A stretch of 64,000 bases of DNA from positions 1,865,748 through 1,929,747 of the forward strand of contig CBDCYU010000003.1 of assembly GCA_965224345.1 (NCBI GenBank), in the 5' to 3' direction. Shown one piece after another: positions 21,835 to 38,060 of this stretch. A model generated the notes under the pieces. It did no database searches. It was given only the letters and a program-made list of their open reading frames with translations, and had not been told where the DNA came from. How positions within the stretch are numbered: the stretch's first letter is position 1; every line of letters begins with the position of its first letter. The translations under genes were made by a program, and so were the position numbers. Source of the DNA: Dehalococcoidia bacterium (GTDB taxonomy: Bacteria; Chloroflexota; Dehalococcoidia; Lucifugimonadales; CBDCYU01).

Positions 21835-23919
21835 TCAGTTGTACGTGTCAGGCGGCGTCACGCCGTGGAAGATGGAGTATTCCGAGATAACCAGGTCCTC
21901 GCCGCCGAGAGCGGCCCACACGAGGACTGTGTAGACGCCATTCCCGTACCTGCTCAGCAGGCCGCCGATGTCCGCGTTCACCTCAAACGACGCGCCGTCT
22001 GCGCGCCACGACCGCGCGGTGACCCGCGACACGATAGTGATGCGCTCCTCCATGAGGTGGCTCGCGTCGTAGGCCGCTTGCCAGAACCGGTGCGCCTCGT
22101 TGTGTGACTGCGGCGCGGGCGCATCCGGCGGAACGTCGAAGGGGTCGGGGCAGGGTTTGTGCGTGGTCGTGTACTCGTCCTCGTCGTAGAACCAGCCTCC
22201 GGATAGAGGCGGTCTTAGCGAGGCTATCGAAAGGCCGAGGCTGTAGCAGTAGGTCCGAGAGACTTGACCTCGCGTGAGATTATGAGGCGGCGGGTCGTAG
22301 TATATCTGGACTCTCAGATCCTGTTCGTCCTCAAACATCACGCCGTTCTTTGTCGTTCCAGACATAGCGAGAACGCCGTCCTCGATTGCTGGCAGCTGGT
22401 CGTACTCCACGTAGTCGCCCTCGAAGTGCTGGAAAGCCATGACGTTGTATCGGTCCCAGGCGAGGCCGATGTTGATCTTCCTGTGCCAGGGGTCGAGGAT
22501 GTTGCGCCGGTGTCCTGGGCTGTCCATCCAGCCATCCATAGCTTCCCGGACCTCCTGCTCGATACTACGGATGGCCCGATAGCCATCGGATGCCCTGATG
22601 CAGTAGTCTGATCCACGCCCGTTCTCTCCGTTGGACTGGTAGCCTCCGGCAAGGCTGTACCTCATGTAGGGCTTCAGGCCGTCGATGCCCCAGTGGGACG
22701 AGAAGCAGCTCTCCAGCGCCGACTCGGCGTGCATCTGCGCGGCAACGTTGTCGCCGAGGACCACGGGGCTGACGCCCACCTTGGCCCGCTCCGCGTTGAT
22801 CAGCTCCAACATGTACCGTTTCTCCTCCACGTGGCGCAGGTCGGGAGGAAGCGAGGGTGGTGTCGTGGTCCCCGCGGGCGTTCCGGTCGGCTTAGGCGTG
22901 ACCGTCGGCACGGGCGTGCCTGTCGGTGTGACCGCTGGCGTCAGGGGAGTGACCGTCGGCACGGGCGTGTCTGTCGGCGTCGGGGGAGTGACCGTCGGCA
23001 CGGGCGTGTCTGTCGGCGTCGGGGGAGTGACCGTCGGCACGGGCGTGCCTGTCGACGTCGGGGGAGTGACCGTCGGCACGGGCGTGTCTGTCGACGTCGG
23101 GGGAGTGACCGTCGGCACGGGCGTGTCTGTCGGCACGAGCGTGGAGGTAGGCCCCGGCGTAGAGGTCGATGTTGGCGTCCCATACAGCGCCCGGACGGTT
23201 GCCTGTACCTGGGCCTCTACTGTCGCCTGCGTGTTCGGCCCAAGGCCTGAGCGCGGCGTCGCCAGAGCTTTCGCCACGGCCGCCTCCACAGTGGCCGCTA
23301 CGTTGGGGGGTATCGGAGTCGGCTCGACCCCAATCCACTCCAATGACTCTTCCAGGTCGACCTTCCGGGCCTTAAACCACTCATCCCCGTTCCCGTAGAC
23401 GATGAACCCCACCACGAACGTTGCAATGAGAGCCGCGACAATCAGGATTCCCAGTCTAGGCCCACCGCCACCGGAACGTGCAGGCCGAGTGGTCCTAGCA
23501 GGGGGACGACGCGGCGGCGGCCTGTACCTACCACGGCCGCTGCGACTCGTGTACGTCTGCCCGCGCTGAATCGGGGGATTCGACTGTGGCTGACTGCGCC
23601 TTGGAGAAGTCCGCTTAGGTGACGCAGGCACCGCGCTTCCGAGGGGTGGCGGGCCTCTGTCAGGAAGGGTGAGGTCGACGTCCTTCAGGAGTTCTTCGAG
23701 ACTTAACGGTCGTACCGGGCGACGGCGCTGGCGCTTATCTTTCTCCATATGCTTCGTTGCAATCCAGCCGACCTTGAAGCACCTGGGGCATCTAGTCAGT
23801 TTTCCGCCGAGTTTCTCCGTCCACCGGGCCATTATCTCGCCGGCGCCGTTGCAGGTCTGGCAGACCCTCCAAACATGGCTTGGTGGAGGTGTGGTGGTAG
23901 GTCGTGGGCGAGAGGCCAT
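21835..23919 (-). CDS. Membrane-anchored CAP/SCP-domain protein with N-terminal zinc ribbon and Pro/Thr-rich repeat linker
   Basis: CQTCNGAG...CPRC zinc ribbon, basic/Pro-rich segment, TM helix LGILIVAALIATFVVGFIV, (TPPTSTDTPVPTV)n linker. CAP-like block YMLELINAERAKVGV...SHWG...MDGWMDSPGHRRNIL, plus about 230 aa of unassigned C-terminal domain. ATG 23919 has AGGAGG 6 nt upstream. Confidence 0.8.
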   Translation of the reverse strand: MASRPRPTTTPPPSHVWRVCQTCNGAGEIMARWTEKLGGKLTRCPRCFKVGWIATKHMEKDKRQRRRPVRPLSLEELLKDVDLTLPDRGPPPLGSAVPASPKRTSPRRSQPQSNPPIQRGQTYTSRSGRGRYRPPPRRPPARTTRPARSGGGGPRLGILIVAALIATFVVGFIVYGNGDEWFKARKVDLEESLEWIGVEPTPIPPNVAATVEAAVAKALATPRSGLGPNTQATVEAQVQATVRALYGTPTSTSTPGPTSTLVPTDTPVPTVTPPTSTDTPVPTVTPPTSTGTPVPTVTPPTPTDTPVPTVTPPTPTDTPVPTVTPLTPAVTPTGTPVPTVTPKPTGTPAGTTTPPSLPPDLRHVEEKRYMLELINAERAKVGVSPVVLGDNVAAQMHAESALESCFSSHWGIDGLKPYMRYSLAGGYQSNGENGRGSDYCIRASDGYRAIRSIEQEVREAMDGWMDSPGHRRNILDPWHRKINIGLAWDRYNVMAFQHFEGDYVEYDQLPAIEDGVLAMSGTTKNGVMFEDEQDLRVQIYYDPPPHNLTRGQVSRTYCYSLGLSIASLRPPLSGGWFYDEDEYTTTHKPCPDPFDVPPDAPAPQSHNEAHRFWQAAYDASHLMEERITIVSRVTARSWRADGASFEVNADIGGLLSRYGNGVYTVLVWAALGGEDLVISEYSIFHGVTPPDTYN
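22898..23137 (-). repeat. 39-bp tandem repeat, about 6 units, in-frame (13-aa Pro/Thr linker units)
   Basis: Unit GTGACCGTCGGCACGGGCGTG(T/C)CTGTCG(G/A)CGTCGGGGGA restarts at 22949, 22988, 23027, 23066 and 23105, with a diverged first unit at 22898. Confidence 0.9.
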
Positions 23920-24048
23920 ATCATCCTCCTGTGGTAGAATCATGGGCAACATCGACTTGGGGAGACACCCAAGATGGAGTTGGACCTGGACGAGTAAGCT
24001 AGGCCGCGTCCTCGGCTATGAGGTCGGAAAGGAGAAGAAGGGAAACGG

Positions 24049-24979: not shown

Positions 24980-25204
24980 ATGAGTTACGTGAGCTTCGGC
25001 TGGAACGGGCGTGATCGAGACATCGAAGTGTTCGTCAAGGACGGTGTCTGGATGACGCGCCATACCATCGACGGCGAGCCCGACGAGCAGCTGATCAGGA
25101 TGTTGGGCTCCCACGAGCTCCCCACTCCCTGGTCTGATGGTACGGACCGCGATACCGTTGTCAAGGATCTGTCCGACCGGAATCGACACGCAACGATCCA
25201 TTAG
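24980..25204 (+). CDS. Hypothetical small protein (74 aa)
   Basis: Strong RBS AGGAGGAG 5 nt upstream of the ATG. The opposite-strand ORF 24965-25201 has no RBS. Confidence 0.5.
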   Translation: MSYVSFGWNGRDRDIEVFVKDGVWMTRHTIDGEPDEQLIRMLGSHELPTPWSDGTDRDTVVKDLSDRNRHATIH

Positions 25205-25284: not shown

Positions 25285-28200
25285 ATGCAACATCTGTCTC
25301 TACCAAAGCTCCTAATACGGCGTCTCACCAACGACTGGAAGCTCCTGACAGCCGTATTCTTCGGCATAGCGGCTGCTACCGCCCTGGCAGCGGGAGGGCC
25401 GCTGTACCTGAGGTCGCTGGACCAGGTGGACTTCGAGGCCTCCGTTGACAGGCTGGACGCCCCCACGCTTACACTGCTCGTCTTCGGACCCGACACACCT
25501 GCGTCGGAGAGCGCGCTTGAGCAGATCGAGGCCTCGCTGTCGGAGGCCATCGAGACCCACCTCTCGCCAATCTACCTCAGCCGCGAGAAGGCCACCAAGG
25601 GCCCCAACTCCCTGCTGGGCGTCGAGGACCGTCCGATACCCCCCAGCGGCGGAAAGGGGGTGCTACTCTCGCGGGGCTTCCTGCAGTCCCTATCCAACCT
25701 GGAGAGCCACTCTCGGTTCCTGGAAGGCCGGATGGCTACCGACGAGACGAAGCTGACGTCTCAGGGGTTGGAGGTGGAGGCGGTAATCGGGTCGGAGACG
25801 GCCAGCAGGTTCTCCCTGGGACTGGACGACGTGGTTGGGTTCTCCCCGGGCATAGAGTCGCTGGACGCGGCCCTGGCCCGGATAGTCGGCATAATCGAGC
25901 CGAAGGACCCCACAAGCGATCTCTGGAGAGTCGCCGCCCCCCTGCTGGCCCCAGACCCCCTGACGGAGCCGCCGCCCCTGCTGATACAGGTCGACCCGGA
26001 GGAGCCGCCGGTGTCCGTATTCGTGACCAGGGAGGCCCTGTTGAAGGCCATCGGCGAGCCGACTATTGCCGCTCCGCTGCAGCAGGAGGTGTTCCTGGCC
26101 AGCAACACCCTCCTGGTGGGCCTGCCGTCCAGGCCGCTGCCCCTGTCCGGAGGAACGGGGATCCTGGCCTATATCGGCTACCTCCAGAACCTCTCGAACC
26201 TGGAGCAGCACGCGCGTTTCCTGGAGGGTCGGATGGCCGGCAGCCGGGTCGTCGACGGCCCCAATGGAAAGAGGGTAGAGGCGGTCATCCCCACGCAGCT
26301 TGCGACGCGGTACCACCTGGAGGTGGGCGACACAGTGGAGTTGTCGCCATCCCTGGGGCTGGACACCAGCATCACGGCGGAGATCACGGGAATCATCGAG
26401 CCGACGGACAGGACCGATGCCTACTGGAGCTTGATGTTCGGGTACCTCATACCGTCGTCATTGGTGTCCGACTCGGCGCCCGGAGGACCGGACGCCGACC
26501 CCGACGAGCAGCCCGAAGGCGGCCTCGTCCGCGCTCCGGGCATCCCTCTGGGGGTGCAGCCCAGCGGCAGGCCTCCGCTGCCGCTGATGACCTCCGAGGA
26601 GGTCCTGGCGGAGGCTACCTCGGCAACCTTCCCGGGGTCCCTCGCCAGGGCCACGTGGTTCATAGACATCGATACCGAGGCGCTCAAGGAGCTCCCCATC
26701 TCCGAGGCGCGCCAGCGCCTGTTGGGCTTCGAGGAGGCGCTGCAAAGAGCCATGCCGGGAGTGGACATAAGCCCGGGAGCGGTGAGAGGCCTCACCGCGG
26801 AGGAGGCGAACAGCAACCTGCTGTCCAGCGTTCCGCTGAGGCTGCAGATGACGGTGCTGGTCGGCGTGGCGCTGCTGTTCCTTGCGATGATGGTCTTCCA
26901 CCTGGTGCAGACCCGCGAGAGCGACTCGACCATGATGAGGAGCAGGGGATTGGGCATATCGCATCTCCTGAACCTGTACGTCTTGGAGGGCTTCATCGTA
27001 GCGCCGGCCGCCACCGTGGCGGGCATACTCCTGGCCCTGGGCGGCGTAACCCTGGCCGGGACCATGCCCTCTTTCCAAGATCTGACCGATGGGGACCCGC
27101 TGCCCCTCAGGGCGGACCTGACGCCCATCGTCTATGCGTTGGCCGTGGGGCTGTTGTGCCACGTCATGTTCGTAGTCCTGGGTGTGCTTTCCGCAATGCG
27201 GTTGCAGCTGGTGGGGCGCTTCAGCGCGTCCCGTCCGTCGGAGACACCCTTCTTCCAGCGCTACTACCTCGACATCGTCCTCATGGCCATCGGGGCCTTC
27301 GTCTTCTGGGAGCTGGATTCCAGGGGGCAGTTCGTGTCCGGGGGACTCTTCAAGGACGTCGAGGTGAACGAGACCCTGCTGCTGGCGCCGGGCCTCTTCC
27401 TCATAGCGGCGGCGCTGATCTTCAACAGGCTCTTCCCGCTGATCGTTCGATTCCTCAGCGGAGAGTCGGCCGCCCTGCTCCATCTCGTAACGGTCGCTGC
27501 GGCGGCAGCCGTCGCAGTCGGCACGGTCGTCGAGTCGGAGAGCGAAGAGCTGGGCCTCAGAGTCGGCCTGGGGCTTCTGCTCCTGGGCCTACTGGCCGTG
27601 TACTGGGTCACCAACCGGATCCGCGGCCTGTACCCCCAGGTGATGGGACTCCTGGTCCAGGCGGCGCTGGTGGCGGCCGTCCTGGCGGTCCAACGCCCCG
27701 AGAGGGGCGATCTGCTCTTCGCACCGCTAATCGTCCTCCTGTCGATTGTTCCCGCGCAGCTGCTGTTCCGGGGCCTCAGGGAGGCCGCCGCCGGGCTGCC
27801 CGCATGGGTCTCAGTGGGGCTGTGGCACATGTCGCGGAACTCGGTCCAGTACAATTGGCTGGTCCTCCTCATGGTCCTGGTAACGGGCGTTGCGGTCCTG
27901 GCGGCGACCGTCGGAGAGACCTTCGATAGGGGACGCCGTGACAGCCTTCATTACTCCGTAGGGTCCGACCTTCGCCTTACCGGCGTCGACATGATGCCCG
28001 GGGGTGTGGCCGCTTTGAGGGAGCAGCATCTCTCTCGATTTGGCGTCAGCTCAGCCGTCGTATACCGCACAGCCGGAACCGTGAGCACCGACATCGTGGA
28101 TGTCTTGGCGGTGGAGCCCGACGAGTTCGAGGCGGTCTCATGGTACAGGGACGACTTCTCCTCTCTCCCCTTGGAGGGCATCATGGGTCGGATCAGCCCC

Positions 28201-29487
28201 GAGCCCCGGTCCCCGCGGATCACTATTCCCCGGGACACCGAGAGCATCGGCATGTGGGTCCGGGGCGTGGATATCAGAGCGTCCCAGTCGGTAGCGGTGG
28301 TGCTGAGCGACCCGGAGGGAGAGACTGAGCTGGTGTTCCTGGGGACCGTAGCCAGCTCCGACTGGCAGCTTCTGAGAACGGAAGTGGCTGCCTCCGAGGC
28401 GCCCCGCCACCTGGCATCCGTGGTGACCTTCGAACCCCCGGGGATGAACCTGCCGCTGGCCGGATCGATCCAGGTCGACAATCTCCACGTAACGGCCGGC
28501 GTGCTGCAGGAGGAGATCGTACTCGAAGATTTCGAGGGCCAGCGGACGTGGGTGCCCATCGCCCTCTCCACTCTGGCATCCGAGAGCGAGTTCTCCCTGG
28601 CCGGGGACGCATTCGACGGCAACGGAGCCGGGCTATTCTCCTTCGGTATCCGGAGCCTCAACAGCTTCCGCGGCTTCTATCCGAGCCCATCCTCGGGCGC
28701 CATGCCGGTGGTGGTCAGCTCGTCCCTGGATGCGCCATCCGCCGCCGCCGTCGGGGACCTCTTCGTGGTCGAGATAGGAGGCCGCTGGATACCGGCCCGG
28801 ATCGCGGATATCGTGGAGTACTTCCCCACGACGGACGAGGACCGGCCGTTCATCCTCGCCGATCTGGAGAGCCTCCAGGCACACCTCAACGCCTTCCCGG
28901 CCCAGGTGTCGACCAAGCCGAACGAGCTGCTCATAGATACCGGCGCGGCAGACCGGCAGGCGTTGGTCGACACGCTGGCAGGCCTCGAACCGGCGCCGCG
29001 CCAGATCATGGACCTGGCCTCGTTGGTGGACGAGCAGGAGCTGGACCCCTTCACGACGGCGGCGTGGAGACCGGTGGCCTATCTGTCCATCGGCATGGCG
29101 TTGATAGCCACCGCGGTAACCTACATGGCCTACGTCGTGCTCTTCCTCAGGCGCAGCCGCGTCGAGATGGGCGCCCTGGCGTCCCTCGGCCTCTCCAGGG
29201 GCCAGACTCTGGCGCTGCTGGTCTTCGAGCACCTGTCCATCGCGGCGATAGGCATTGGCGTGGGCGTCTGGGCCAGCTTCATGACGCGCTCCCCCATCGT
29301 CTCGCCGCTGGCCGTAACGACGGAGGGAGGCCGACTCGTTCCCCCCTTCGTGATGACCACGGATTGGGGCCTACTGATACCGATTTTCGCCATACAGGCC
29401 GCTTTCCTGCTTGTCGGTCTGCTGGTGCTGAGCCGTAGGGCGGGAGACGCGAACCTCAGCTCCATCGTCAGAAGAGGAGAAGTCTAG
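25285..29487 (+). CDS. Giant FtsX/MacB-type ABC permease (1400 aa) with two FtsX modules and two large extracytoplasmic domains
   Basis: N-terminal TM helix, about 460-aa ectodomain with two MacB-PCD-like repeats, a TM cluster, a second about 360-aa ectodomain, and a C-terminal FtsX-like three-helix bundle (LSRGQTLALLVFEHLSIAAIGIGVGVW...). Confidence 0.85.
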   Translation: MQHLSLPKLLIRRLTNDWKLLTAVFFGIAAATALAAGGPLYLRSLDQVDFEASVDRLDAPTLTLLVFGPDTPASESALEQIEASLSEAIETHLSPIYLSREKATKGPNSLLGVEDRPIPPSGGKGVLLSRGFLQSLSNLESHSRFLEGRMATDETKLTSQGLEVEAVIGSETASRFSLGLDDVVGFSPGIESLDAALARIVGIIEPKDPTSDLWRVAAPLLAPDPLTEPPPLLIQVDPEEPPVSVFVTREALLKAIGEPTIAAPLQQEVFLASNTLLVGLPSRPLPLSGGTGILAYIGYLQNLSNLEQHARFLEGRMAGSRVVDGPNGKRVEAVIPTQLATRYHLEVGDTVELSPSLGLDTSITAEITGIIEPTDRTDAYWSLMFGYLIPSSLVSDSAPGGPDADPDEQPEGGLVRAPGIPLGVQPSGRPPLPLMTSEEVLAEATSATFPGSLARATWFIDIDTEALKELPISEARQRLLGFEEALQRAMPGVDISPGAVRGLTAEEANSNLLSSVPLRLQMTVLVGVALLFLAMMVFHLVQTRESDSTMMRSRGLGISHLLNLYVLEGFIVAPAATVAGILLALGGVTLAGTMPSFQDLTDGDPLPLRADLTPIVYALAVGLLCHVMFVVLGVLSAMRLQLVGRFSASRPSETPFFQRYYLDIVLMAIGAFVFWELDSRGQFVSGGLFKDVEVNETLLLAPGLFLIAAALIFNRLFPLIVRFLSGESAALLHLVTVAAAAAVAVGTVVESESEELGLRVGLGLLLLGLLAVYWVTNRIRGLYPQVMGLLVQAALVAAVLAVQRPERGDLLFAPLIVLLSIVPAQLLFRGLREAAAGLPAWVSVGLWHMSRNSVQYNWLVLLMVLVTGVAVLAATVGETFDRGRRDSLHYSVGSDLRLTGVDMMPGGVAALREQHLSRFGVSSAVVYRTAGTVSTDIVDVLAVEPDEFEAVSWYRDDFSSLPLEGIMGRISPEPRSPRITIPRDTESIGMWVRGVDIRASQSVAVVLSDPEGETELVFLGTVASSDWQLLRTEVAASEAPRHLASVVTFEPPGMNLPLAGSIQVDNLHVTAGVLQEEIVLEDFEGQRTWVPIALSTLASESEFSLAGDAFDGNGAGLFSFGIRSLNSFRGFYPSPSSGAMPVVVSSSLDAPSAAAVGDLFVVEIGGRWIPARIADIVEYFPTTDEDRPFILADLESLQAHLNAFPAQVSTKPNELLIDTGAADRQALVDTLAGLEPAPRQIMDLASLVDEQELDPFTTAAWRPVAYLSIGMALIATAVTYMAYVVLFLRRSRVEMGALASLGLSRGQTLALLVFEHLSIAAIGIGVGVWASFMTRSPIVSPLAVTTEGGRLVPPFVMTTDWGLLIPIFAIQAAFLLVGLLVLSRRAGDANLSSIVRRGEV

Positions 29488-32400
29488 TGCAGACCTCCCC
29501 CCGCACGATGCTCTCAAGATCGGTACATACCTTCCTGACCACGTGGAGGATGACCTTCAAGAGGAGCCTCTCGCGCTGGCGGCTTCTGTCAACGGTCGTT
29601 ATTGGCGTTCTTCTGGCGGCGTCGGTCCTGTCGGGCGCCGTGATCTACTTCAACGCCCTGAGGGAGGTGGCGCTGGGTCACGCCCTGGAGCGCCGGTCGT
29701 CGTCAGAGCTGGCCATCGTCATACAGACCACGCGGGGGCCTACCACCAGGGTCGAGTACGACACGGCCTCAGCCGTGCTGGGCCGGTCGGTCGACGAGCG
29801 CCTGGGGTGGCTCGTAACGGATAGGGTGCGCATGGGCAAGTCTCCCACGATGTACCTGGAGGAGCCCGGAGCGGGTCCGGACGCCCAGCCGAGTCAGAGC
29901 GACGCCCGGTCGTACTTCGCATTCCTACCCCGGCTGTTCGAACAGGGGCTCGTTACCATCCTGCCCGGAGGCAGCCCCCCGGCGGAGAGCGGAACCTTGT
30001 CGCCGGACGGTGTGACGGTGCTGGAAGCCGTCGTGCCGGAGGAGGAGGCCGCCCTGTTCGGTGTCGGCGTGGGAGACCGCATGGCCGCCGGACCCACTTG
30101 GGAGGACAGCACGGACAGGGTTGAGGTGGTCATCAGCGGGATCTTCCGGGTCAATGATCCGGAGGACGACGTCTGGCGCCTCCAGAGGGATGTCCTCAGC
30201 GCTTCCACGAGGACGATAGAGCGCACGATGCCCTTCTACGTCTCCGAGGCGGCCTTCCTGGAGACTCTGGGCGGGGCCCTCTCCAACATGGAGAGCACCT
30301 ACGCCTGGCTCCTGAGGATCAGTCCCCAGCGGATCACCGCCATCAACTCCAAGAGTGCCCTGGACGACCTGAGGGCGCTGCGGGTGGATTCGGTATCGGC
30401 GCTGCCGAACTATCACCAGGCCACCGCCCTAGACCGCACCCTGGAGGAGTATGACCGGAGGATATTCTTCAGCAGGCTGCCGATGTTCGTAGTGCTCATC
30501 CTGGTAGCCGTGGTCGTCGTCTACTACGTGGCGATGCTGGCTTCGCTGGTCGTGGAGGAGCGCAGGGGGGAGATGGCGCTGCTGCGCAGCCGCGGAGCCA
30601 GCTCCATCCAGATCATCGCGGTGTTTGCGCTGGAGGGAGCAACCATCGCCATCCTTGCCGCGGTCGCCGCCCCGTTCCTGGCGGCCGTGGCCGTCAGCCT
30701 GATGGGCTACACGCCCTCGTTCTCCGAGCTCACGGACGGCTCCAGGCTGCAGGTGGCGCTGACGCCGGTCGCCTTCATACTGAGCGCCCTGGGAGCCGTT
30801 CTCAGCTTCGTCGCGTTGATGGTGCCCGCCGTGCAGGTGTCCCGGGTCGGGGTCACCCGCCATCGCCAGGAGGCGGCTCGGCCCACCCGTCTGCCCGCCT
30901 TCCAGCGCTACTACCTGGACGTTTTCCTGCTGGTGATCAGCATTCTGCTGTTCCGGCAGCTGACGGAGCAGGGCTCCGTGGTTGCGACCAACACCCTGGG
31001 CGAGTCGGTTGCCAACGAAGCCCTCCTGGCGCTGCCGGGCCTGATCCTGGTCGCATCGGCCATGGTCCTCCTCAGGCTCTTCCCGCTGGCCATGGGCCTC
31101 GTGAGCCGCGTGGCCGCGGCGGTGTTCCCCGCCGGGCTGACGATGGGCGCATGGCAGATGGCGCGCAACCCATCACACTACGCCCGGCTGTCGCTGCTGC
31201 TGATCCTGGCGGCCGGCCTGGGCATATTCGCCTCCAGCTTCAAGGCCACCCTGGACACCAACTTCCGGGAACGCGTCCTCTACGCCACCGGCAGCGACGT
31301 CAGGCTGGACGAAGTGTCCCCCGTGCCCGGCGCCGTCTCTTTCGACGCTCAGCCGCAGGAGTACAAGGCGGGACAGGACATGACGGCTGCCTTCCAAGAG
31401 GTGCCGGGGGTCGACCGCGTGAGCTCGGTCCTCCGTACGCGAGGGCTGGACCTGCGTGGAGGCAGTGCGACGGACTTCACGGTCCTGGCCGTAGATGGAG
31501 AGAGCTTCCACGAGGTGGCCTGGTTCCGAGAGGACTTCGCGAACGAGTCCCTGGAGAGCCTTCTCGACAAGCTGTCCCTCGTCGAGTCCCCGCAGGGTCT
31601 GCCGCTCCCGGTAGATGCGGAGCGTCTCAGCCTGCGGCTGCGGCCGGACCGCCTGCTCCCCTCGGTCTCGGTCAACGTCCGGCTGAGGAACGCCCAGGAC
31701 GAGCACTCCAACGTCTCTCTGGGGACGCTGAGCGACAGCGAGTGGACTGTTCTCACGGTGGGCCTGACCCAGGAGGAGCTGGGCTCATTCTCCCTCAGAC
31801 GTCCGCTGACCATGGTATCCCTCTACGTGGAGGAGATAGCGGTGGGCAACTCTCTCGACTCGGGCTCTCTGCTGATCGATGAGATCACCGTTACGACCGG
31901 CGACGGGGCCGTGAGTGCCATCGAGGACTTTGACGATGCCATTGACTGGAGGGTGGTCAGGAATGCGACCGCTGCGGTCCCCGACGCCGTCTACGCATCG
32001 AACGAGGTGCTCGAAGGCGAGTCCGGCTCTCTGCTCTTTTCCTGGTCCAGGGGGGGCTTCCTGGAGCCGCGAGGCATCTACTACGGCTCCGAGCCGGAGG
32101 CCGTGCCTGTGCTGGTGAACCGATCGTTCATCCAGTCCACCGACTACGCGGTGGGAGACGAGCTGGAGGTGGCAGTCGGCGAGGACCTCTTCGGTGGACA
32201 CCAGATGAGGGTTACGCTGGTCGGTGTTGTAGACTACTTCCCCACCATCCTGGACCACGACGAGAGGCTGCTGGTCGCCGACCTGACGGCCGTAAGCCGC
32301 AACGCGAACCTGCTATACCGCGGCTCCGGCACCTTTCCCATGGAGCTCTGGGCCTCGGCGGCGGAAGGCGCCCCGGACCGCGAGGGGCTCGTACAGAGGC

Positions 32401-32915
32401 TGGAGAGCGTCCCCCAGTACCGCAGCCGCTTCTCCAGGGACACCCTGGAGGGGCTCAACATCTCCAGGGTCGATCCCCTGGTGGGAGCAGGCTGGAGCGC
32501 CCTGCTGCTCCTCGCCTTCGTGGCGGTGCTGATCCTGAGCGGCCTAGGATTCCTGGTACACGCCTACGTCTCCTTCAGGAACCGGGAGGTGGAGTTCGCC
32601 TTCGCCAGGACGTTGGGCTTCTCCGTCTGGCAGCAGACGGCGCAGATCTGGCTGGAGCAGGTGGTAATAGTGGCCATTGGCATAGCCCTGGGTACCTGGA
32701 TGGGCGGACGAATCAGCGCCGCAGTCATGCCCTTCCTGGGCCACGACGACTGGGGCGGGCAGGTGCTGCCTCCCTTCGCCATACACACCGACACCGGAGC
32801 ACTGGTTCTCACGTATGCCGCCATGTTCGTTGTGTTCGCCACCATAAGCCTGAGCCTGCTGGTGATGATCCACCGGATCTCGCTGCACCGGGTTCTCAGA
32901 CTGGGAGAGCGGTAA
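29487..32915 (+). CDS. Giant FtsX/MacB-type ABC permease (1142 aa), paralogous architecture
   Basis: GTG overlaps the upstream stop (TAGTG). Same TM-ectodomain-FtsX-TM-ectodomain-FtsX layout, with blocks LRSRGASSIQIIAVFALEGATIA and FQRYYLDVFLLVISILLF as in the first permease. Confidence 0.85.
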   Translation: MQTSPRTMLSRSVHTFLTTWRMTFKRSLSRWRLLSTVVIGVLLAASVLSGAVIYFNALREVALGHALERRSSSELAIVIQTTRGPTTRVEYDTASAVLGRSVDERLGWLVTDRVRMGKSPTMYLEEPGAGPDAQPSQSDARSYFAFLPRLFEQGLVTILPGGSPPAESGTLSPDGVTVLEAVVPEEEAALFGVGVGDRMAAGPTWEDSTDRVEVVISGIFRVNDPEDDVWRLQRDVLSASTRTIERTMPFYVSEAAFLETLGGALSNMESTYAWLLRISPQRITAINSKSALDDLRALRVDSVSALPNYHQATALDRTLEEYDRRIFFSRLPMFVVLILVAVVVVYYVAMLASLVVEERRGEMALLRSRGASSIQIIAVFALEGATIAILAAVAAPFLAAVAVSLMGYTPSFSELTDGSRLQVALTPVAFILSALGAVLSFVALMVPAVQVSRVGVTRHRQEAARPTRLPAFQRYYLDVFLLVISILLFRQLTEQGSVVATNTLGESVANEALLALPGLILVASAMVLLRLFPLAMGLVSRVAAAVFPAGLTMGAWQMARNPSHYARLSLLLILAAGLGIFASSFKATLDTNFRERVLYATGSDVRLDEVSPVPGAVSFDAQPQEYKAGQDMTAAFQEVPGVDRVSSVLRTRGLDLRGGSATDFTVLAVDGESFHEVAWFREDFANESLESLLDKLSLVESPQGLPLPVDAERLSLRLRPDRLLPSVSVNVRLRNAQDEHSNVSLGTLSDSEWTVLTVGLTQEELGSFSLRRPLTMVSLYVEEIAVGNSLDSGSLLIDEITVTTGDGAVSAIEDFDDAIDWRVVRNATAAVPDAVYASNEVLEGESGSLLFSWSRGGFLEPRGIYYGSEPEAVPVLVNRSFIQSTDYAVGDELEVAVGEDLFGGHQMRVTLVGVVDYFPTILDHDERLLVADLTAVSRNANLLYRGSGTFPMELWASAAEGAPDREGLVQRLESVPQYRSRFSRDTLEGLNISRVDPLVGAGWSALLLLAFVAVLILSGLGFLVHAYVSFRNREVEFAFARTLGFSVWQQTAQIWLEQVVIVAIGIALGTWMGGRISAAVMPFLGHDDWGGQVLPPFAIHTDTGALVLTYAAMFVVFATISLSLLVMIHRISLHRVLRLGER

Positions 32916-32937
32916 CACCTTTCAAGGAGAGAGGAAG

Positions 32938-33825
32938 ATGTCGAACGATGATCGGAGTCCCTACGTCGTCTGCGACGACCTGTACAAGATCTACAAGATC
33001 GCCGACCTGGAGGTCGTGGCGCTTCGCGGCTTGGACCTGACTGTGGACAGGGGTGAGGTGGTGGCCGTCGTGGGCGCCAGCGGCAGCGGCAAGACCACCC
33101 TGCTCAACATACTCGCCGGATACGATACGCCGTCAGCCGGCAGCGTGACGGTCGGCGAGAGGGACCTCCTCGACATGTCGGCCAGGGGCGTCGAAGCGTA
33201 CCGCAGGGAGGAGGTCGGCTTCATCTGGCAGCAGACGAGCCGGAACCTGCTCCCATACCTGTCGGTCCTGGAGAACGTGGACCTGCCGATGATGATCACC
33301 AACCTGGGGCCTTCCGAGATGAGAGACAGGAGCGAGAGCTTGGTGGAGATGGTGGGCCTCAGCCACCGGAGCGGGCACACACCGGATATGCTCTCCGGCG
33401 GTGAGCAGCAGCGGGCCGCCATCGCCGTCGCGCTGGCCAACAACCCCTCCATGCTGCTGGCCGACGAGCCGACCGGCGAGCTGGACGATGCGACGGCCGG
33501 CGAGATCCTGGACCTGCTAGGCAAGCTAAACGACGAGTTCGGCACCACCCAGGTCATCGTGACCCACGACCCCGATATCGTCAGCAAGGTCGATAGGGCG
33601 GTCAGAATCAGCGATGGCAAGACCTCCTCCGAGCTGCGGAAAGCGGACGGATTCCGCCGGCGCTCCCAAGGCGGTGAGCCGGGGGCCACGGAGGAGTACG
33701 CCCTGGTTGACGGCTCCGGCAGGATCCAGATACCCGAAGAGTTCCTGAAGCAAGTCGATATCACCGGCAGAGCGAAGATCAGGTTGACCGATGGCAAGGT
33801 CACCATCGTCGCACAGGAGGAGTAG
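32938..33825 (+). CDS. ABC transporter ATP-binding protein (MacB/LolD-type NBD) with C-terminal AbrB/SpoVT-like extension
   Basis: Walker A GASGSGKTT, signature LSGGEQQR, Walker [13 protein letters not shown]-loop THD. The C-terminal about 70 aa end in GRIQIPEEFLKQVDITGRAKIRLTDGKVTIV. Confidence 0.92.
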   Translation: MSNDDRSPYVVCDDLYKIYKIADLEVVALRGLDLTVDRGEVVAVVGASGSGKTTLLNILAGYDTPSAGSVTVGERDLLDMSARGVEAYRREEVGFIWQQTSRNLLPYLSVLENVDLPMMITNLGPSEMRDRSESLVEMVGLSHRSGHTPDMLSGGEQQRAAIAVALANNPSMLLADEPTGELDDATAGEILDLLGKLNDEFGTTQVIVTHDPDIVSKVDRAVRISDGKTSSELRKADGFRRRSQGGEPGATEEYALVDGSGRIQIPEEFLKQVDITGRAKIRLTDGKVTIVAQEE

Positions 33826-33827
33826 CG

Positions 33828-34538
33828 ATGAGCAGCCAGAACGCTATCATCGATGCGCGGGACCTAGGCCGCAGCTTTCAAGTCGGCTCCGATGAGGTGG
33901 TGGCCGTCCACGACGTGAACATGCAGGTGCGACCCGGGCAGTTTGTAGCCGTAGTCGGCAGGTCCGGATCGGGCAAGACGACGCTGCTCAACCTGATGGC
34001 GGGACTGGACAAGCCAACCTCGGGCAGGGTGCTGCTGGAGGGCCAGGACCTCTCCCAGATGAGCTCCGGAGAGCTGACCCAGATACGCAGGCACAAGATA
34101 GGGTTCGTGTTCCAGTCCTTTGGCCTTCTACCGCTGCTGTCGGCCTACGAGAACGTCGAGCTTCCCCTTCGAATCTCAGGTACGAGAAGGAGGGACCGCG
34201 CCCCGCGAGTACAGGAAGTGTTGGAGATGGTGGGCCTCACCCGCAGGGCAAGTCACAGGCCCTACGAGCTGTCCGGCGGCGAGCAGCAGCGGGTAGCCAT
34301 CGCCCGCGCCGTCGTCACTCGTCCCCCGATAGTCCTGGCGGACGAGCCGACGGGAGAGCTGGACTCCGTCAACGCCCGCGCCATCTTCAGGCTATTCGAG
34401 GAGATGGTCCGCACTCAGGGGTTGAGCGTCGTCACCGTCACCCACGACTCGACCCTGCTGGCGATGGCGGATGAGGTAAAGGAGATGCGCGACGGCGGGC
34501 TGCACGAGGCCGGCGTATCCGCCGGGCGCTTCGTGTAG
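33828..34538 (+). CDS. ABC transporter ATP-binding protein (MacB/LolD-type NBD)
   Basis: Walker [33 protein letters not shown]. Confidence 0.95.
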
Positions 34539-34586: not shown

Positions 34587-35369
34587 CTAGTTGTCGGGTG
34601 TGCCGCCCGCGAGGAAGCCGCCGTCCACGGTGATGCATTCGCCGTTGACGTAGTCCCCCAGATCGGAAGACAGGAAGAGTACGGCCCTGGCGATGTCGTG
34701 GGGGAAGCCCCCGCGGCGGGAGGGGATCCACTCCATCGCGCCGCCGAGGTAGGCCGGGCCGGCCCTCAGGTGCTCCTCCTCGGGTGGGAGGCTGCGGCTG
34801 TCGATGTATCCCGGAGCCACACAGTTGAAGGCGATGCCCTGGCCGGCGAGGTCGACCGCCATGCTCTTGGCCATCCGAACGAGCCCAGCCTTGCAGACCC
34901 CGTACACCAGGTCCCCCGGCCAAGAGCGGAAGGCGTGGACGCTGCTGATGCTGACCACGCGCCCTCCCTGGCCCTGTGCCACCATCTCGCGAGCCGCTCT
35001 CTGACTGCATAGGAAGTAGCCCTTCAGCGCGTTGCTCACGAGGTGGTCCCAATCATCTTCGGTGATCTCCAGGAAGGAGTAGTTGGTGCTGGAGACCGCG
35101 TTGTTGACCAGGATGTCGATGCGTCCGTGCTCCGAGAGGAACTCATCGAACATTCTGTTCACCTGACGGCTGTCCGCGATGTCCGCCAGGTGCCAGCTCA
35201 CGGCGCGGCCTTCCGCCCGCACCATCTCCATGGTCTGCTCCGCGTCCCGGTCCCGCTCGATGTCGTTGATGCCGACGTCCGCCCCCTCGCTGGCGAACAG
35301 CTTGGCTATCCCCCGTCCGATTCCCCGGCGTGATCCTGTGATCAGCGCTTTCTTGCCCTTCAGTAGCAT
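34587..35369 (-). CDS. SDR family oxidoreductase (FabG-like)
   Basis: TGSRRGIGRGIA cofactor motif, NNAV, catalytic YGVCK. ATG 35369 follows GGGAGGGAG. Confidence 0.9.
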   Translation of the reverse strand: MLLKGKKALITGSRRGIGRGIAKLFASEGADVGINDIERDRDAEQTMEMVRAEGRAVSWHLADIADSRQVNRMFDEFLSEHGRIDILVNNAVSSTNYSFLEITEDDWDHLVSNALKGYFLCSQRAAREMVAQGQGGRVVSISSVHAFRSWPGDLVYGVCKAGLVRMAKSMAVDLAGQGIAFNCVAPGYIDSRSLPPEEEHLRAGPAYLGGAMEWIPSRRGGFPHDIARAVLFLSSDLGDYVNGECITVDGGFLAGGTPDN

Positions 35370-35607
35370 GGCTCCCTCCCTTCCGCGCCAGTATACCAAT
35401 TCGCCGCGCCGGCGTTGCCATGGCCCGTCTCACTAGGAGTAGGGTTGAAGGACATGCCACACCAACCATGAACAGTTACATACGGGCTTGAAAGGAGGTT
35501 GGCGGGCTGATACTCTTGCAATCCGAAAACACCGTAGTTAGCGGGGCCGTAACCGCCCTGAGACGCCTCCAGCCCTCCGGTTCCTCATCGGAACAGAAAA
35601 GCCAACG

Positions 35608-35958
35608 ATGCACCAATCGCTTATGCAGGCGAAAGCCGCAGCCGAGAGGGCCGTCTACGGGGACTCCGAGGAGGCGCTGCTGACGGTGCTGGCGCTAGAC
35701 TGCGGCGGGCCGCTTGAAGGTGTGACGGTACGTGTCGAGGTGACCACTCCGTCCGGCATCGGGAGGGCGGCCGAGACGGTTACGAGCGCGGACGGTGCGG
35801 CCAGCCTCACCTACATGACCGACGCCGCGCGAGACGGCGAGGGCGTCTACGCTATCGACGCCCTGGCGTCCAGGGACGGCTACGATTCGGTGCTGGCATC
35901 CGCGACCTTCGAGGTGACAGGCGGGACCGCAGAAGCGGGTAGGAGGACCCAGAGATGA
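35608..35958 (+). CDS. Hypothetical protein (possible Ig-like beta-sandwich)
   Basis: High third-position GC. Stop overlaps the acs start (ATGA at 35955-35958). No obvious RBS and no signal peptide. Confidence 0.45.
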   Translation: MHQSLMQAKAAAERAVYGDSEEALLTVLALDCGGPLEGVTVRVEVTTPSGIGRAAETVTSADGAASLTYMTDAARDGEGVYAIDALASRDGYDSVLASATFEVTGGTAEAGRRTQR

Positions 35959-38060
35959 CACAGAGTGACGTCAGCGAAGCGGAGATTGCGTCTCACTGGA
36001 AGGAAGAGGAGAGCATCCATCCCAGCCCGGAGTTCGTCGCCCAGGCCAACCTCACGGATCGGTCCGCCTTCGACAGGTTCGGCCTCGACGGCTTCCCGGA
36101 GTGCTTCCGCGAGTACGCGGACCTTCTCACCTGGGACAAGTACTGGCACACGACCCTGGACTCGTCCAACCCGCCCTTCTGGAAGTGGTGGGTCGGCGGC
36201 AAGCTGAACGCCTCCTACAACTGCGTCGACCGCCACCTGGCGAAGCACAGGAACAAGGCTGCCTTCATCTGGGTGTCGGAGCAGGAGGACGAGAACGACC
36301 AGGTCGTCACCTACCAGGACCTGTACGTGAGGGTCAACGAGTTCGCGTCCCTGCTGAGGGAGTCCGCCGGGGTGAAGGCCGGGGACAGGGTCACATTCCA
36401 CATGCCCATGCTGCCCGAGCTTCCGGTATCGATGCTCGCCTGCGCGAGGCTTGGCGCGGTCCACTCGCAGGTGTTCGGCGGGTTCAGCGGCTCTGCCTGC
36501 GGGGACCGGATCGTCGACTCCGGCAGCCACGTCCTCGTGACCATGGACGCCTACTGGCGCAACGGCCAGCTCCTGGACCACAAGATCAAGGCCGACGAGG
36601 CCGTCGCCCAGGCCGAAGCGGGAGGCGCCAAGGTCGACAAGGTGCTGGTCTGGCGACGGTACCCGGGAGAGTACTCTTCGCCGACCCCCATGGTCCAGGG
36701 CCGAGACTACTTCGTCGACGAGCTGCTGAAGGAGCACCGGGGCAAGAGGGTGGAGCCGGTGTCGATGGATGCCGGGGACCCGCTGTTCCTGATGTACACC
36801 AGCGGCACTACGGCCCAGCCCAAGGGCTGCCAGCACAGCACCGGCGGATACCTGTCCTACGTCACGGGCACCGCGAAGTACTACCAGGACATCCGCCCCG
36901 AGGACGTCTACTGGTGCTTCGCCGACATCGGATGGATCACGGGCCACTCCTACATCGTCTACGGGCCGCTGGCCCTGGCCGCCACCAGCGTGCTGTACGA
37001 GGGCGTTCCCACTTACCCCGATCCCGGTAGGCCGTGGAGAATAGCCGAGCGGCTGGGCGTCAACATCTTCCACACGGCCCCCACGACCATCCGTATGCTG
37101 AGGAAGTCGGGTCCCGACGAGCCCGCGAAGTACAACTACCACTTCAAGCACATGACCACCGTGGGGGAGCCCATCGAGCCGGAGGTGTGGCGCTGGTACT
37201 ACGAGGTCGTGGGCAAGGGAGAGGCGGCCGTCGTCGATACCTACTGGCAGACGGAGACCGGCGGCTTCCTGGGCTCCACGGCGCCCGCCCTCCAGCCGAT
37301 GAAGCCCGGCAGCTGCGGGCCCGGCGTGCTGGGCATCAATCCGGTGATCTTCGACGACGAGGGAAACGAGGTCGAGCGGGGCAGCGGCAAGGCGGGCAAC
37401 ATCTGCATCAGGAACCCGTGGCCCGGCTTCATGCAGACGGTCTGGGGAGACCCCGACCGCTTCGTGGAGACCTACTTCAGCCGGTTCTGCAAGGACCCGG
37501 AGAGTAAGGACTGGCGCGACTGGCCGTACATGACCGGAGACGGCGCGACGGAGGCCGCCGACGGATACTTCCGCATCATCGGCAGGCTGGACGACGTGAT
37601 CAACGTCGCGGGCCACAGGCTGGGCACCAAGGAGCTGGAGTCCGCCGTGCTCACGGTGGAGGCCGTGGGCGAGGCGGCGGCCGTTCCAGCCTACGACGAG
37701 CTCAAGGGCCGCGTACCCGAGATATACCTCTCCCTCAAGCCGGGCTACGACGCCACCGAGGGCGTGGAGGACCAGGCCAAGCAGGCCGTCACCCAGATCA
37801 TTGGCCCGATAGCCAGGCCGTCCCAGGTCTGGGTGACCGAAGACCTCCCCAAGACCCGCTCGGGCAAGATCATGCGCCGCGTTATAGCCTCCATCTCCAA
37901 CTTCATGGACGTCGGCGACACGACGACGTTGGCGAACCCGGAGGTGGTGGAGGACATCCGGATGCAGGTCCAGAGCGCCAAGGTCAGGCAGGGCGTAGTG
38001 CCCAGGGAGATACCCAAGGAGCTGGAGGAGGAGCTCAGGCGCTTCGGCGAGGAGCAGTGA
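35955..38060 (+). CDS. acs: Acetyl-CoA synthetase family (AMP-forming acyl-CoA ligase, long form)
   Basis: WWVGGKLNASYNCVDRHL, YTSGTTAQPKG, WITGHSY, TYWQTETGG, GRLDDVINVAGHRLGT, KTRSGKIMRR. Confidence 0.92.
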   Translation: MTQSDVSEAEIASHWKEEESIHPSPEFVAQANLTDRSAFDRFGLDGFPECFREYADLLTWDKYWHTTLDSSNPPFWKWWVGGKLNASYNCVDRHLAKHRNKAAFIWVSEQEDENDQVVTYQDLYVRVNEFASLLRESAGVKAGDRVTFHMPMLPELPVSMLACARLGAVHSQVFGGFSGSACGDRIVDSGSHVLVTMDAYWRNGQLLDHKIKADEAVAQAEAGGAKVDKVLVWRRYPGEYSSPTPMVQGRDYFVDELLKEHRGKRVEPVSMDAGDPLFLMYTSGTTAQPKGCQHSTGGYLSYVTGTAKYYQDIRPEDVYWCFADIGWITGHSYIVYGPLALAATSVLYEGVPTYPDPGRPWRIAERLGVNIFHTAPTTIRMLRKSGPDEPAKYNYHFKHMTTVGEPIEPEVWRWYYEVVGKGEAAVVDTYWQTETGGFLGSTAPALQPMKPGSCGPGVLGINPVIFDDEGNEVERGSGKAGNICIRNPWPGFMQTVWGDPDRFVETYFSRFCKDPESKDWRDWPYMTGDGATEAADGYFRIIGRLDDVINVAGHRLGTKELESAVLTVEAVGEAAAVPAYDELKGRVPEIYLSLKPGYDATEGVEDQAKQAVTQIIGPIARPSQVWVTEDLPKTRSGKIMRRVIASISNFMDVGDTTTLANPEVVEDIRMQVQSAKVRQGVVPREIPKELEEELRRFGEEQ

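Follow-up and report, generated by a model that had tools for sequence, protein, structure and literature searches.

Two fused YbbP-type permeases and two distinct ATPases encoded by a conserved locus of marine Dehalococcoidia: a putative type VII ABC machine

The window analysed here, i.e. the whole stretch of 64,000 nucleotides, carries a marine Dehalococcoidia/SAR202 locus made of four intact, co-oriented and tightly spaced genes in the order P1-P2-A1-A2. All of them are located on the + strand. P1 (25285..29487, ATG start, 1400 aa) and P2 (29487..32915, GTG start, 1142 aa) encode permeases, while A1 (32938..33825, 295 aa) and A2 (33828..34538, 236 aa) encode ATPases. The open reading frames and their translations agree with the original prediction, which had described two consecutive permease genes of these sizes overlapping at a TAGTG sequence and two different ATPase genes 2 nt apart. 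Indeed, the TAG stop codon of P1 shares one base with the GTG start codon of P2, which is preceded, 6 nt 5', by a GAGGAG Shine-Dalgarno sequence. The P2/A1 and A1/A2 gaps are 22 nt and 2 nt, respectively, and a separate Shine-Dalgarno sequence precedes the start of each ATPase gene. No terminator-like site was found at the three junctions, the sole one detected on the + strand being located inside P1. Tight spacing, Shine-Dalgarno sequences and terminator-free junctions were all counted for an operon structure, and the sequence is consistent with a single operon. This arrangement is not due to chance, since it recurs in dozens of genomes.

A small ORF (24980-25204), whose ATG is preceded by AGGAGGAG, lies 80 nt upstream of P1 and had been associated with the ABC locus. 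It is a real and conserved gene. However, the association did not hold: its position is kept in a single close relative (L081, 81% identity), it is not found in the other loci, and its more distant homologues (61-64% identity) adjoin groES-groEL. It was therefore rejected as a component of the ABC system.

Both permeases contain two FtsX-type modules, as originally predicted, the Pfam FtsX family (PF02687) matching each of them twice above the gathering score (39.5 and 56.6 versus 25.5 bits). According to the hydropathy topology, P2 has 10 transmembrane (TM) helices (4+2+4) and two ectodomains (residues ~60-325 and ~590-994). P1 follows the same plan with 4 additional linker helices, i.e. ~14 TM helices and ectodomains at residues ~43-515 and ~881-1263. 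The ectodomain size proposed from the sequence (~350-460 aa) was roughly right, the topology giving 265-470 aa across both permeases. The AlphaFold model of P2 (pLDDT 80.4, pTM 0.67) has YbbP of Escherichia coli (9ge6_A, 9ge7_A) as its best Foldseek match, with an E value of 2.6e-16 over the full length. As modelled, P2 has the YbbP fold, the 4+2+4 TM helices and both ectodomains being part of one chain. Topology and model matches also reveal that, in each module, TM1 and TM2 are separated by a large Porter/Sabre domain.

The first ectodomain of P2 (29664..30461, + strand) is predicted to be of Porter/Sabre type by the topology and by its alpha/beta pattern in the model, and it matches the periplasmic domains of LolC/E and MacB in Foldseek. 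The second one (31254..32468, + strand) is predicted to combine a MacB/LolE-type core and a beta-sandwich insert. A separate model of residues 596-990 (pLDDT 83.5, pTM 0.80) matches the periplasmic domains of LolE, LolC, MacB and YknZ with E values of 7.5e-6 to 1e-3. The insert (31617..32120, + strand, residues ~711-878), all-beta in the model, displays marginal matches, with probabilities of 0.77-0.98 and E values of 2e-3 to 1.5e-2, to PLAT/LH2 domains (pancreatic lipase, 5-lipoxygenase, alpha-toxin), and lower-scoring ones to generic sandwiches. Hence, the view that these ectodomains are unassigned has to be abandoned, the models matching the MacB/LolC/LolE/YknZ periplasmic-domain fold plus an extra beta-sandwich. 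This fold does not point to a substrate.

P1 is a divergent paralogue that is placed in the P1 clade with a support of 100. Its second ectodomain (27925..29073, + strand), delimited by hydrophobic segments 853-880 and 1264-1289, can be aligned with that of P2. Its first ectodomain holds a tandem duplication of a ~134-aa module. The two copies, residues 110-242 (25612..26010, + strand) and 277-410 (26113..26514, + strand), share 43% identity in a self-BLAST comparison (E 2e-30). This duplication explains why P1 reaches 1400 aa versus ~1215 aa in most homologues.

Both A1 and A2 match ABC_tran (Pfam). Their best NCBIfam matches are LolD, FtsE, YbbA and MacB, every one of them below the equivalog cut-off; therefore, they are members of the subfamily but not orthologues of any named member. 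A1 is LolD/YbbA-like and carries a C-terminal extension, whereas A2 is LolD/FtsE-like and tail-less. The two proteins are encoded by distinct, anciently diverged genes (44% identity), and their Q-loop regions differ while each is conserved (QQTxRN versus QSFGLLP). Motif conservation among 45 orthologues shows that all the catalytic motifs are intact in both. Altogether, FtsX modules, Porter/Sabre ectodomains and LolD/MacB/FtsE-type ATPases were all found, in agreement with the predicted assignment to type VII (MacB/FtsX/YbbP). A 259-aa ATPase encoded 5' of some P1-P2 loci was considered as a third type of motor but was not counted as a member of the family because it is merely ~34% identical to A1 and A2.

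The C-terminal tail of A1 (33643..33822, + strand, residues ~236-295) is a candidate AbrB/MazE/MraZ-like swapped-hairpin half-domain. Searching with the tail alone by a word-based method retrieved close relatives only, and an exhaustive profile search was required. In the family alignment, 23 of the 30 tails match MazE_antitoxin (PF04014, best E 1.1e-6) and 22 of the 30 match MraZ, whereas the tail of the window matches MraZ alone (E 0.16). A profile search of the PDB returned MraZ, SpoVT, AbrB and MazE with E values of 0.18-1.4. Domains of the AbrB, MazE and MraZ kind require dimerization to be complete. In one relative (P0226), two tails follow each other in tandem within one chain. Another (P0222, 858 aa), made of an ATPase, a tail and a membrane region, was discarded as an informative fusion, its C-terminal part having no FtsX match.

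The order P1-P2-A1-A2 is found in 43 of 80 related Dehalococcoidia loci, and also at a second locus of the same genome. In the phylogeny, P1 and P2 fall into two distinct clades whose subclades match each other. The 12 complete genomes checked each harbour exactly one A1 gene and one to six P2-type genes, most of which are beside or near a P1 gene. Likewise, exactly one orthologue of A2 (67-73% identity) is found per genome in 8 genomes. In three genomes (G304, G306 and G311), A1 and A2 adjoin each other at a site distant from both P1-P2 pairs. In split loci, P1 remains with P2, and A1 with A2. Independently scattered permease-ATPase pairs, which had been set beforehand as a refutation of the original prediction, were not seen, nor was any P-A, P-A order or P1-A1/P2-A2 split among the loci surveyed. 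A1 is present and A2 absent at two loci, L026, in a genome that keeps A2 12 kb away, and L082, which has the structure P1-P2-A1. Solo P1 clades and solo P2 genes also exist. At some loci, P1 and P2 are 5-6 kb apart, with other genes in between; L085 has there a gene for a 1555-aa FN3 protein, and L083 one for a DUF11/GLUG surface protein. Some loci carry further genes between P2 and A1; these were rejected as partners, since they are Uma2-endonuclease-like and Fic-like selfish genes; a Uma2 gene of the same kind is also present in the P1-P2 gap of L083. No conserved partner gene was found across the 80 loci.

The origin of this organization can be traced in other Chloroflexota, in which adaptor-P-A1-A2 modules (L086, L087/L088, L089) encode one double-FtsX permease and orthologues of both A1 (50-54% identity, with the tail) and A2 (53-57%). 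Their lone permease (945-968 aa) is 25-28% identical to P2 and has smaller ectodomains but the same two types of coupling helices. Their adaptor is an HlyD/YknX-like membrane-fusion protein (MFP) of 489-950 aa, that of L086 having a lipoprotein-type N-terminus. Unlike these modules, the locus of the window has no adaptor gene and a second permease gene occupies its position. No MFP gene was found at the paralogous loci either, and the MFP homologues of this genome are encoded only beside two conventional MacB-like systems. As a single permease accompanies A1-A2 in other Chloroflexota, the A1/A2 pair predates the P1/P2 duplication; the phylogeny also nests this duplication inside Dehalococcoidia, later than the A1/A2 split. 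Furthermore, both ATPases are kept beside the lone permease, and therefore the ancestral state is two different ATPases per permease. The two types of coupling helices are conserved from the single-permease systems into both P1 and P2, and the N-module helices are similar in P1 and P2 and unlike the C-module helices.

We favour, with a probability of about 55%, the reading that an A1-A2 heterodimeric motor drives each permease and that the locus encodes a type VII mechanotransmission machine specific to Dehalococcoidia/SAR202. The paralogues P1 and P2 would be complete pseudo-dimeric membrane domains of YbbP fold (N-terminal FtsX module, linker helices, C-terminal FtsX module), both ectodomains of each facing outward. 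Each permease would therefore present its two ATPase subunits with two distinct coupling helices. The N-module helix (LRSRG type) would receive one of A1 and A2, and the C-module helix (LRAxGLS type) the other. P1 and P2 would share this motor, as would, in genomes with extra copies, the paralogous P1-P2 pairs and the solo permeases. The ATP-driven closure of the motor would be transmitted through helical stalks to the large ectodomains, and P1 and P2, as a co-inherited pair, would take part in the same process. Judging from the modelled folds, the work would be done outside the membrane, with no transmembrane path for the substrate.

This reading has to be set against known stoichiometries. 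YbbAP contains 2 YbbA for 1 YbbP, with coupling helices between TM2-3 and TM8-9, and in both YbbAP and BceAB an ATPase homodimer sits on one double-FtsX chain (PMC12646458). The original prediction had considered a hetero-assembly of four FtsX modules with a heterodimeric ATPase pair. The heterodimer fits the evidence, but four modules on one pair are unlikely in view of the YbbAP precedent because one double-FtsX chain already serves two ATPases. With one A1-A2 heterodimer per permease, any P1-P2 assembly would need two ATPase pairs. Several points weigh against the heterodimer. The catalytic sites of A1 and A2 are fully canonical, and therefore no asymmetry forces them to pair. A single AbrB-like half-barrel normally needs a second copy, a requirement that an A1 homodimer would satisfy no less than a heterodimer. 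L026 and L082 contain A1 but not A2. Lastly, the conservation of the coupling helices could merely reflect descent.

The alternative that survives best, although we consider it rather unlikely, is an obligate supercomplex, P1·P2·(A1A2)2, in which the A1 tails would pair into a swapped-hairpin barrel linking the two motors and P1 would have taken the gene position, and perhaps a scaffold role, of the lost MFP adaptor. P1-P2 pairing outlasts repeated duplications of the locus and the loss of ATPase genes from it. The single candidate AbrB/MazE-like half-domain of A1 belongs to a type that is completed by dimerization, the tandem tails of P0226 would give a complete barrel from one A1, and single-permease ancestors carry an MFP gene where P1 now sits. 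However, the solo P1 clades and solo P2 genes indicate that pairing is not obligatory for every paralogue, P1 and P2 genes lie kilobases apart at some loci, and the tail of A1 may have another target, either a permease loop, a ligand or DNA. The complete picture, with two A1-A2 motors joined by a barrel of A1 tails and P1 replacing the ancestral membrane-fusion adaptor, is unlikely.

Whatever the stoichiometry, the machine could also be a handler or regulator of surface proteins, like FtsEX with EnvC/PcsB, and not a small-molecule transporter, the movements of the ectodomains activating, anchoring or releasing large extracellular proteins or envelope enzymes. The very large size of the ectodomains and the surface-protein genes found between P1 and P2 in L085 and L083 point in this direction, and type VII systems that do not transport, such as FtsEX, are established (PMC12646458). 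We nevertheless find this possibility doubtful: no partner gene is conserved across the 80 loci, surface-protein inserts occur in few loci, that of L083 being accompanied by a selfish-type gene, and no gene encoding a peptidoglycan hydrolase or a coiled-coil activator lies near the locus in the window.

Two independent head-to-tail transporters, one permease working with an A1 homodimer, whose tails would pair under the ATPases in the manner of MetN or MalK, and the other with an A2 homodimer, would agree with the YbbAP and BceAB homodimers, the catalytic completeness of both ATPases, the suitability of a half-barrel tail for A1-A1 pairing and the absence of A2 from L082, but are improbable. 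Split loci never part P1 from P2 or A1 from A2, a permease-by-permease order or split is seen at no locus, and single-permease relatives retain both ATPases. Moreover, P1 and P2 have similar N-module helices, which differ from the C-module ones, whereas homodimers specific to each permease would predict the reverse.

Within the favoured A1-A2 heterodimer reading, the machine would most likely extract or expel a hydrophobic or lipid-like molecule; this substrate class is proposed by analogy with YbbAP, LolCDE, BceAB and HrtBA. The PLAT-like matches of the modelled beta-sandwich are a weak hint of a lipid substrate. In 34 of the 80 loci, and also at the second locus of this genome, acyl-CoA dehydrogenase (ACAD) genes immediately precede the ABC genes in the same orientation; this is also a weak hint of a lipid-like substrate and concerns one major clade only. 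As a clue for the locus of the window itself, the ACAD linkage was partly rejected, because the ACAD-like gene of the window (20490-21767) is not orthologous: it belongs to a different subfamily and lies 3.5 kb away, with opposite-strand genes between.

Type VII ABC systems power key processes of the cell envelope, namely the sorting of lipoproteins, cell division, efflux and sensing of antibiotics, and detoxification of the membrane. To our knowledge, their characterised members associate one ATPase species with two single-module permeases or one fused permease. The module of the window, with its two fused YbbP-type permeases, probable heterodimeric motor and candidate AbrB-like ATPase tail, has a subunit make-up that was not previously described for this class of transporters. 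In the literature searched, no paper linked SAR202 with FtsX-type permeases, and none containing "swapped-hairpin" was found in combination with ABC-transporter terms. SAR202/Dehalococcoidia count among the dark ocean's most abundant bacterial groups, and the module is conserved across them in one to six copies per genome. Identifying its cargo could explain how these monoderm-like cells deal with organic matter that is hydrophobic or refractory, or how they build their envelope, and the A1/A2 asymmetry offers a natural system for studying how the two halves of a pseudo-symmetric MacB-type permease are each powered. If the supercomplex were real, four FtsX modules, four ectodomains and four ATPase subunits would work in concert, a first for a type VII ABC machine, which could capture or extract hydrophobic dissolved organic matter in SAR202.

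Among known systems, YbbAP(-TesA) (9GE6/9GE7/9GE8; PMC12646458) resembles the locus by its single chain with two FtsX modules and linker helices, its two coupling helices and its two LolD-like ATPases. YbbP also shares with P2 Porter/Sabre-type ectodomains between TM1-2 and TM7-8. However, the sequences are only 13% identical, and YbbP has 804 aa versus 1142-1400 aa for the permeases of the window. Unlike YbbAP, the window encodes an extra ectodomain beta-sandwich, a duplicated P1 module, 4 additional P1 TM helices and two co-inherited paralogous permeases. Furthermore, YbbAP has one ATPase gene (homodimer), whereas the window has two distinct ones, A1 with a candidate AbrB-like tail; the two ATPases score 191 and 199 bits against NCBIfam YbbA (cut-off 336). 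No TesA-like SGNH esterase/lipase gene was found among the window neighbours or the recurrent families of the 80 loci. In the bacitracin-type detoxification module BceAB(-BceRS) (7TCG, 8G4C), two ATPases likewise serve a double-FtsX permease of 10 TM helices (Foldseek hits down to E ~3e-8), but BceB has one large ectodomain (TM7-TM8) versus two per window permease, BceA forms a homodimer, and BceAB modules also encode BceRS, whereas no histidine kinase or response regulator gene is present near the locus. MacAB-TolC, YknWXYZ and LolCDE share with the locus the FtsX fold, the Porter/Sabre domain and LolD/MacB-type ATPases. However, their 4-TM permeases have a single module and dimerise, unlike the double-module chains of the window, and the locus lacks genes for partners of the adaptor, outer-membrane or LolA type. 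Orthology to LolC, LolE and LolD is not supported by the NCBIfam scores, which are far below the cut-offs (LolC, 38 versus 473 bits; LolD, 224 and 240 versus 307.75 bits). LolCDE nevertheless resembles the locus in combining two different permease paralogues, with LolC and LolE sharing one LolD homodimer.

Judged from sequence, P1-P2-A1-A2 is a real, conserved and intact operon. Its four ORFs, co-oriented on the forward strand within 25285-34538, encode two double-FtsX permeases, P1 (25285-29487, ATG start, 1400 aa) and P2 (29487-32915, GTG start, 1142 aa), and two ABC ATPases, A1 (32938-33825, 295 aa) and A2 (33828-34538, 236 aa). P1 and P2 overlap at their stop and start codons (TAGTG), with a GAGGAG Shine-Dalgarno 6 nt 5' of the P2 GTG. 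Gaps of 22 nt and 2 nt separate P2 from A1 and A1 from A2, the starts of both ATPase genes having their own Shine-Dalgarno. A terminator scan found no terminator-like site at the junctions between the four genes, the sole plus-strand site lying within P1. Pfam detects two FtsX domains per permease, and ABC_tran in both A1 and A2. In NCBIfam, A1 and A2 are nearest to LolD, YbbA, FtsE and MacB, below all equivalog cut-offs, and P1 and P2 score far under the LolC/LolE cut-offs.

According to hydropathy, P2 has 10 TM helices (4+2+4) and two ectodomains (residues ~60-325 and ~590-994). P1 displays the same plan with four additional linker helices (ectodomains ~43-515 and ~881-1263). It is longer than most of its homologues (1400 vs ~1215 aa) because its ectodomain 1 includes a tandem duplication (residues 110-242 vs 277-410, 43% identity, E 2e-30). 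ORFs, Pfam, topology and this duplication bear out the four-gene locus of double-FtsX permeases and two ATPases put forward in the original prediction. The AlphaFold2 model of P2, built from an input of 34 orthologues (pLDDT 80.4, pTM 0.67), has E. coli YbbP as its top PDB matches (9ge6_A and 9ge7_A, E 2.6e-16, full-length alignment), followed by LolC/LolE, MacB, Spr0694-type proteins and BceB. YbbAP contains two YbbA per YbbP; its 10 TM helices come with a pair of Porter/Sabre periplasmic domains, and its coupling helices lie between TM2 and TM3 and between TM8 and TM9 (PMC12646458). Given this 2:1 layout, a single YbbP-type chain already provides the entire membrane domain that two ATPases need. 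Modelled separately (pLDDT 83.5, pTM 0.80), P2 ectodomain 2 matches the periplasmic domains of LolE, LolC, MacB and YknZ (E 7.5e-6 to 1e-3). By these matches, the ectodomains, initially described as unassigned, are predicted to be enlarged versions of a known fold. The ectodomain 2 model also includes an inserted beta-sandwich of ~170 aa, whose best matches, the PLAT/LH2 domains of lipases, 5-lipoxygenase and alpha-toxin, are marginal (E 2e-3 to 1.5e-2, probability 0.77-0.98).

The Walker A, Q-loop, signature, Walker B and H-loop motifs are intact in both ATPases, and their Q-loop regions are distinct but each conserved (QQTxRN in A1 vs QSFGLLP in A2; 44-45 orthologues). Beyond the ATPase domain, A1 carries ~60 more aa (C-terminus ...EEYALVDGSGRIQIPEEFLKQVDITGRAKIRLTDGKVTIV), a tail kept in all orthologues. 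Among 30 orthologous tails, Pfam detects MazE_antitoxin (SpoVT/AbrB) in 23 (best E 1.1e-6) and MraZ in 22; MraZ, SpoVT, AbrB and MazE also rank top in a PDB profile search, with non-significant E-values. The window's own tail reaches MraZ only, at E 0.16, so the AbrB/MazE-like assignment depends on the family. Profile searching across 1.84 billion representatives gave 494 matches at E <= 1e-3, and nearly all the full-length tail matches that were scanned are ABC ATPases bearing an A1-type tail. One of these matches, the distant A1-type ATPase P0226 (381 aa; JGI sample 3300047160), carries two tandem AbrB-like tails, which is the MraZ arrangement.

The search of species-representative genomes yielded 267 matches, of which 80 loci were fetched; the hosts are Dehalococcoidia, SAR202 or Chloroflexota MAGs. 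The order P1-P2-A1-A2 is found in 43 of the 80 loci, 18 carry P1-P2 without a complete ATPase pair (one of them with A1 only) and 19 carry a solo P1, some being truncated by contig ends and a distinct solo-P1 clade adjoining housekeeping genes. The window's own genome harbours three P1-P2 pairs: the window locus, a second locus organized as ACAD-ACAD-P1-P2-A1-A2 (C3:1723169-1734751; ACAD, acyl-CoA dehydrogenase) and a third limited to P1-P2 (C3:451059-458542). It also encodes one further, single double-FtsX permease (1176 aa; G000:C2:176387-179917, +), which is very divergent and has no ATPase gene beside it. A phylogeny of 147 permeases separates P1 (81 rows, support 100) from P2 (64 rows, support 99) as two clades whose subclades mirror each other; therefore, the P1-P2 pair was duplicated and inherited as a unit. 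In several Dehalococcoidia genomes, the operon has same-strand genes inserted between its own, either Uma2-like endonuclease genes (L006:17428-18424, L012:17445-19314, L025, L020, L083:5711-6799) or Fic-like (L049:17010-18276, L054, L074), which look like selfish insertions tolerated by the operon.

The permeases and the ATPases differ in copy number. Exactly one A1 is encoded by each of 12 complete Dehalococcoidia genomes, and exactly one A2 orthologue (67-73% identity) by each of eight genomes, adjoining A1 in seven and lying 12 kb off in the eighth. The same 12 genomes encode one to six P2-type genes, most of which adjoin a P1, while some lie 5-6 kb from one; in five genomes both P1 and P2 are single-copy, and the census includes at least two solo P2 and several solo P1. 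In three genomes (G304, G306 and G311), the A1-A2 pair is remote from both P1-P2 pairs, so the two ATPase genes keep together, as do P1 and P2. The check proposed in the original prediction, whether permease-ATPase pairs scatter independently, found no such scattering and speaks against two independent head-to-tail transporters.

In a different class of Chloroflexota, loci L086, L087/L088 and L089 are organized as adaptor-permease-A1-A2, with an HlyD/YknX-like adaptor (489-950 aa), a single double-FtsX permease (945-968 aa, 25-28% identity to P2), a tailed A1 (50-54% identity) and A2 (53-57%). The P0226 contig displays the order A1-A2-permease, the latter being a 996-aa FtsX protein. As both ATPases are encoded with one pseudo-dimeric permease, an A1-A2 heterodimer is the simplest reading. 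When the permease tree is rooted with these single-permease proteins, P1, P2 and the permeases of L091, a basal Dehalococcoidia P-P-A1-A2 locus, are monophyletic (support 100), as are P1 and P2 (100 each). The sequences indicate that the A1/A2 split came first, that the permease then duplicated within Dehalococcoidia and that the locus finally lost its adaptor gene; in the window's own genome, adaptor genes are found only beside two conventional MacB-like systems. Another Chloroflexota class provides an independent tandem of two double-FtsX permeases (~930-940 aa), near which no A1/A2 is encoded (L090, G259:C1:3286003-3291730); permease doubling therefore occurred more than once.

The most likely architecture (probability about 0.55) would be a shared A1-A2 heterodimeric motor that drives each of the YbbP-fold permeases P1 and P2, which are inherited together. 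The coupling helices are of two distinct types, E-I/V-A-L-L/K-R/K-SRG in the N-module and LRAxGLS-like in the C-module, both kept from single-permease systems into P1 and P2. This pattern would be compatible with a fixed A1-A2 orientation on every permease, although shared descent alone could yield the same. Assembly of P1 and P2 into one supercomplex, which the joint inheritance of the pair would also allow, is unlikely. Two independent homodimeric transporters encoded head to tail, an option of the original prediction, are still more improbable, since P1-P2 and A1-A2 are linked, no P-A, P-A arrangement was seen among the loci and complete genomes surveyed, and the helix types of the N- and C-modules appear opposite to those predicted for permease-specific homodimers, a pattern that descent could nevertheless explain.

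The small upstream ORF singled out initially (24980-25204, +; 74 aa, no Pfam match) does have a strong Shine-Dalgarno and is a real conserved gene (11 clusters, 59-95% identity), but it was rejected as a part of the module. Its position before P1 is kept only in the closest relative, homologues are absent from the other related loci, and those with 61-64% identity directly flank groES-groEL rather than an ABC locus.

No partner gene conserved across clades was found in the 80 loci. In one major clade (34 of 80 loci), which includes the second locus of the window's genome (ACAD genes at G000:C3:1723169-1725583), one to three same-strand ACAD genes directly precede P1, often with a short-chain dehydrogenase (SDR) gene next. 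Three of the six ACAD-fold genes of this genome lie within ~4 kb upstream of its two P-P-A-A loci. In the window, the ACAD type-2-like gene (20490-21767, +) belongs to a different subfamily, is not orthologous to the ACADs of sister loci and is separated from the operon by opposite-strand genes; a CAP/SCP-domain protein of 705 aa is encoded in between (21835-23952, -). Downstream are an SDR gene (34587-35399, -) and an acyl/acetyl-CoA synthetase-like gene (35955-38060, +). Together with fold analogies to YbbAP, LolCDE, BceAB and HrtBA and the weak PLAT-like insert, these locus hints tentatively suggest, as the likeliest action, that hydrophobic or lipid-like species may be extracted or expelled at the outer membrane face; alternatively, the module may act on surface proteins in an FtsEX-like manner. 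Two variant loci encode a protein between P1 and P2, a 1555-aa FN3-domain protein (L085:6319-10986, -) and a 630-aa DUF11/GLUG surface-type protein (L083:6816-8708, +), which could be surface partners or unrelated insertions.

In the literature searched, no paper links SAR202 to FtsX-type permeases and none contains 'swapped-hairpin' together with ABC-transporter terms. The window locus departs from a defining feature of each of BceAB, LolCDE and MacAB. With only 13% sequence identity, ATPases under the NCBIfam YbbA cut-off, two ATPase species instead of one and no TesA partner gene encoded alongside, it does not belong to the YbbAP-TesA orthologues, although this E. coli system, with which it shares its fold, is the closest one characterised.
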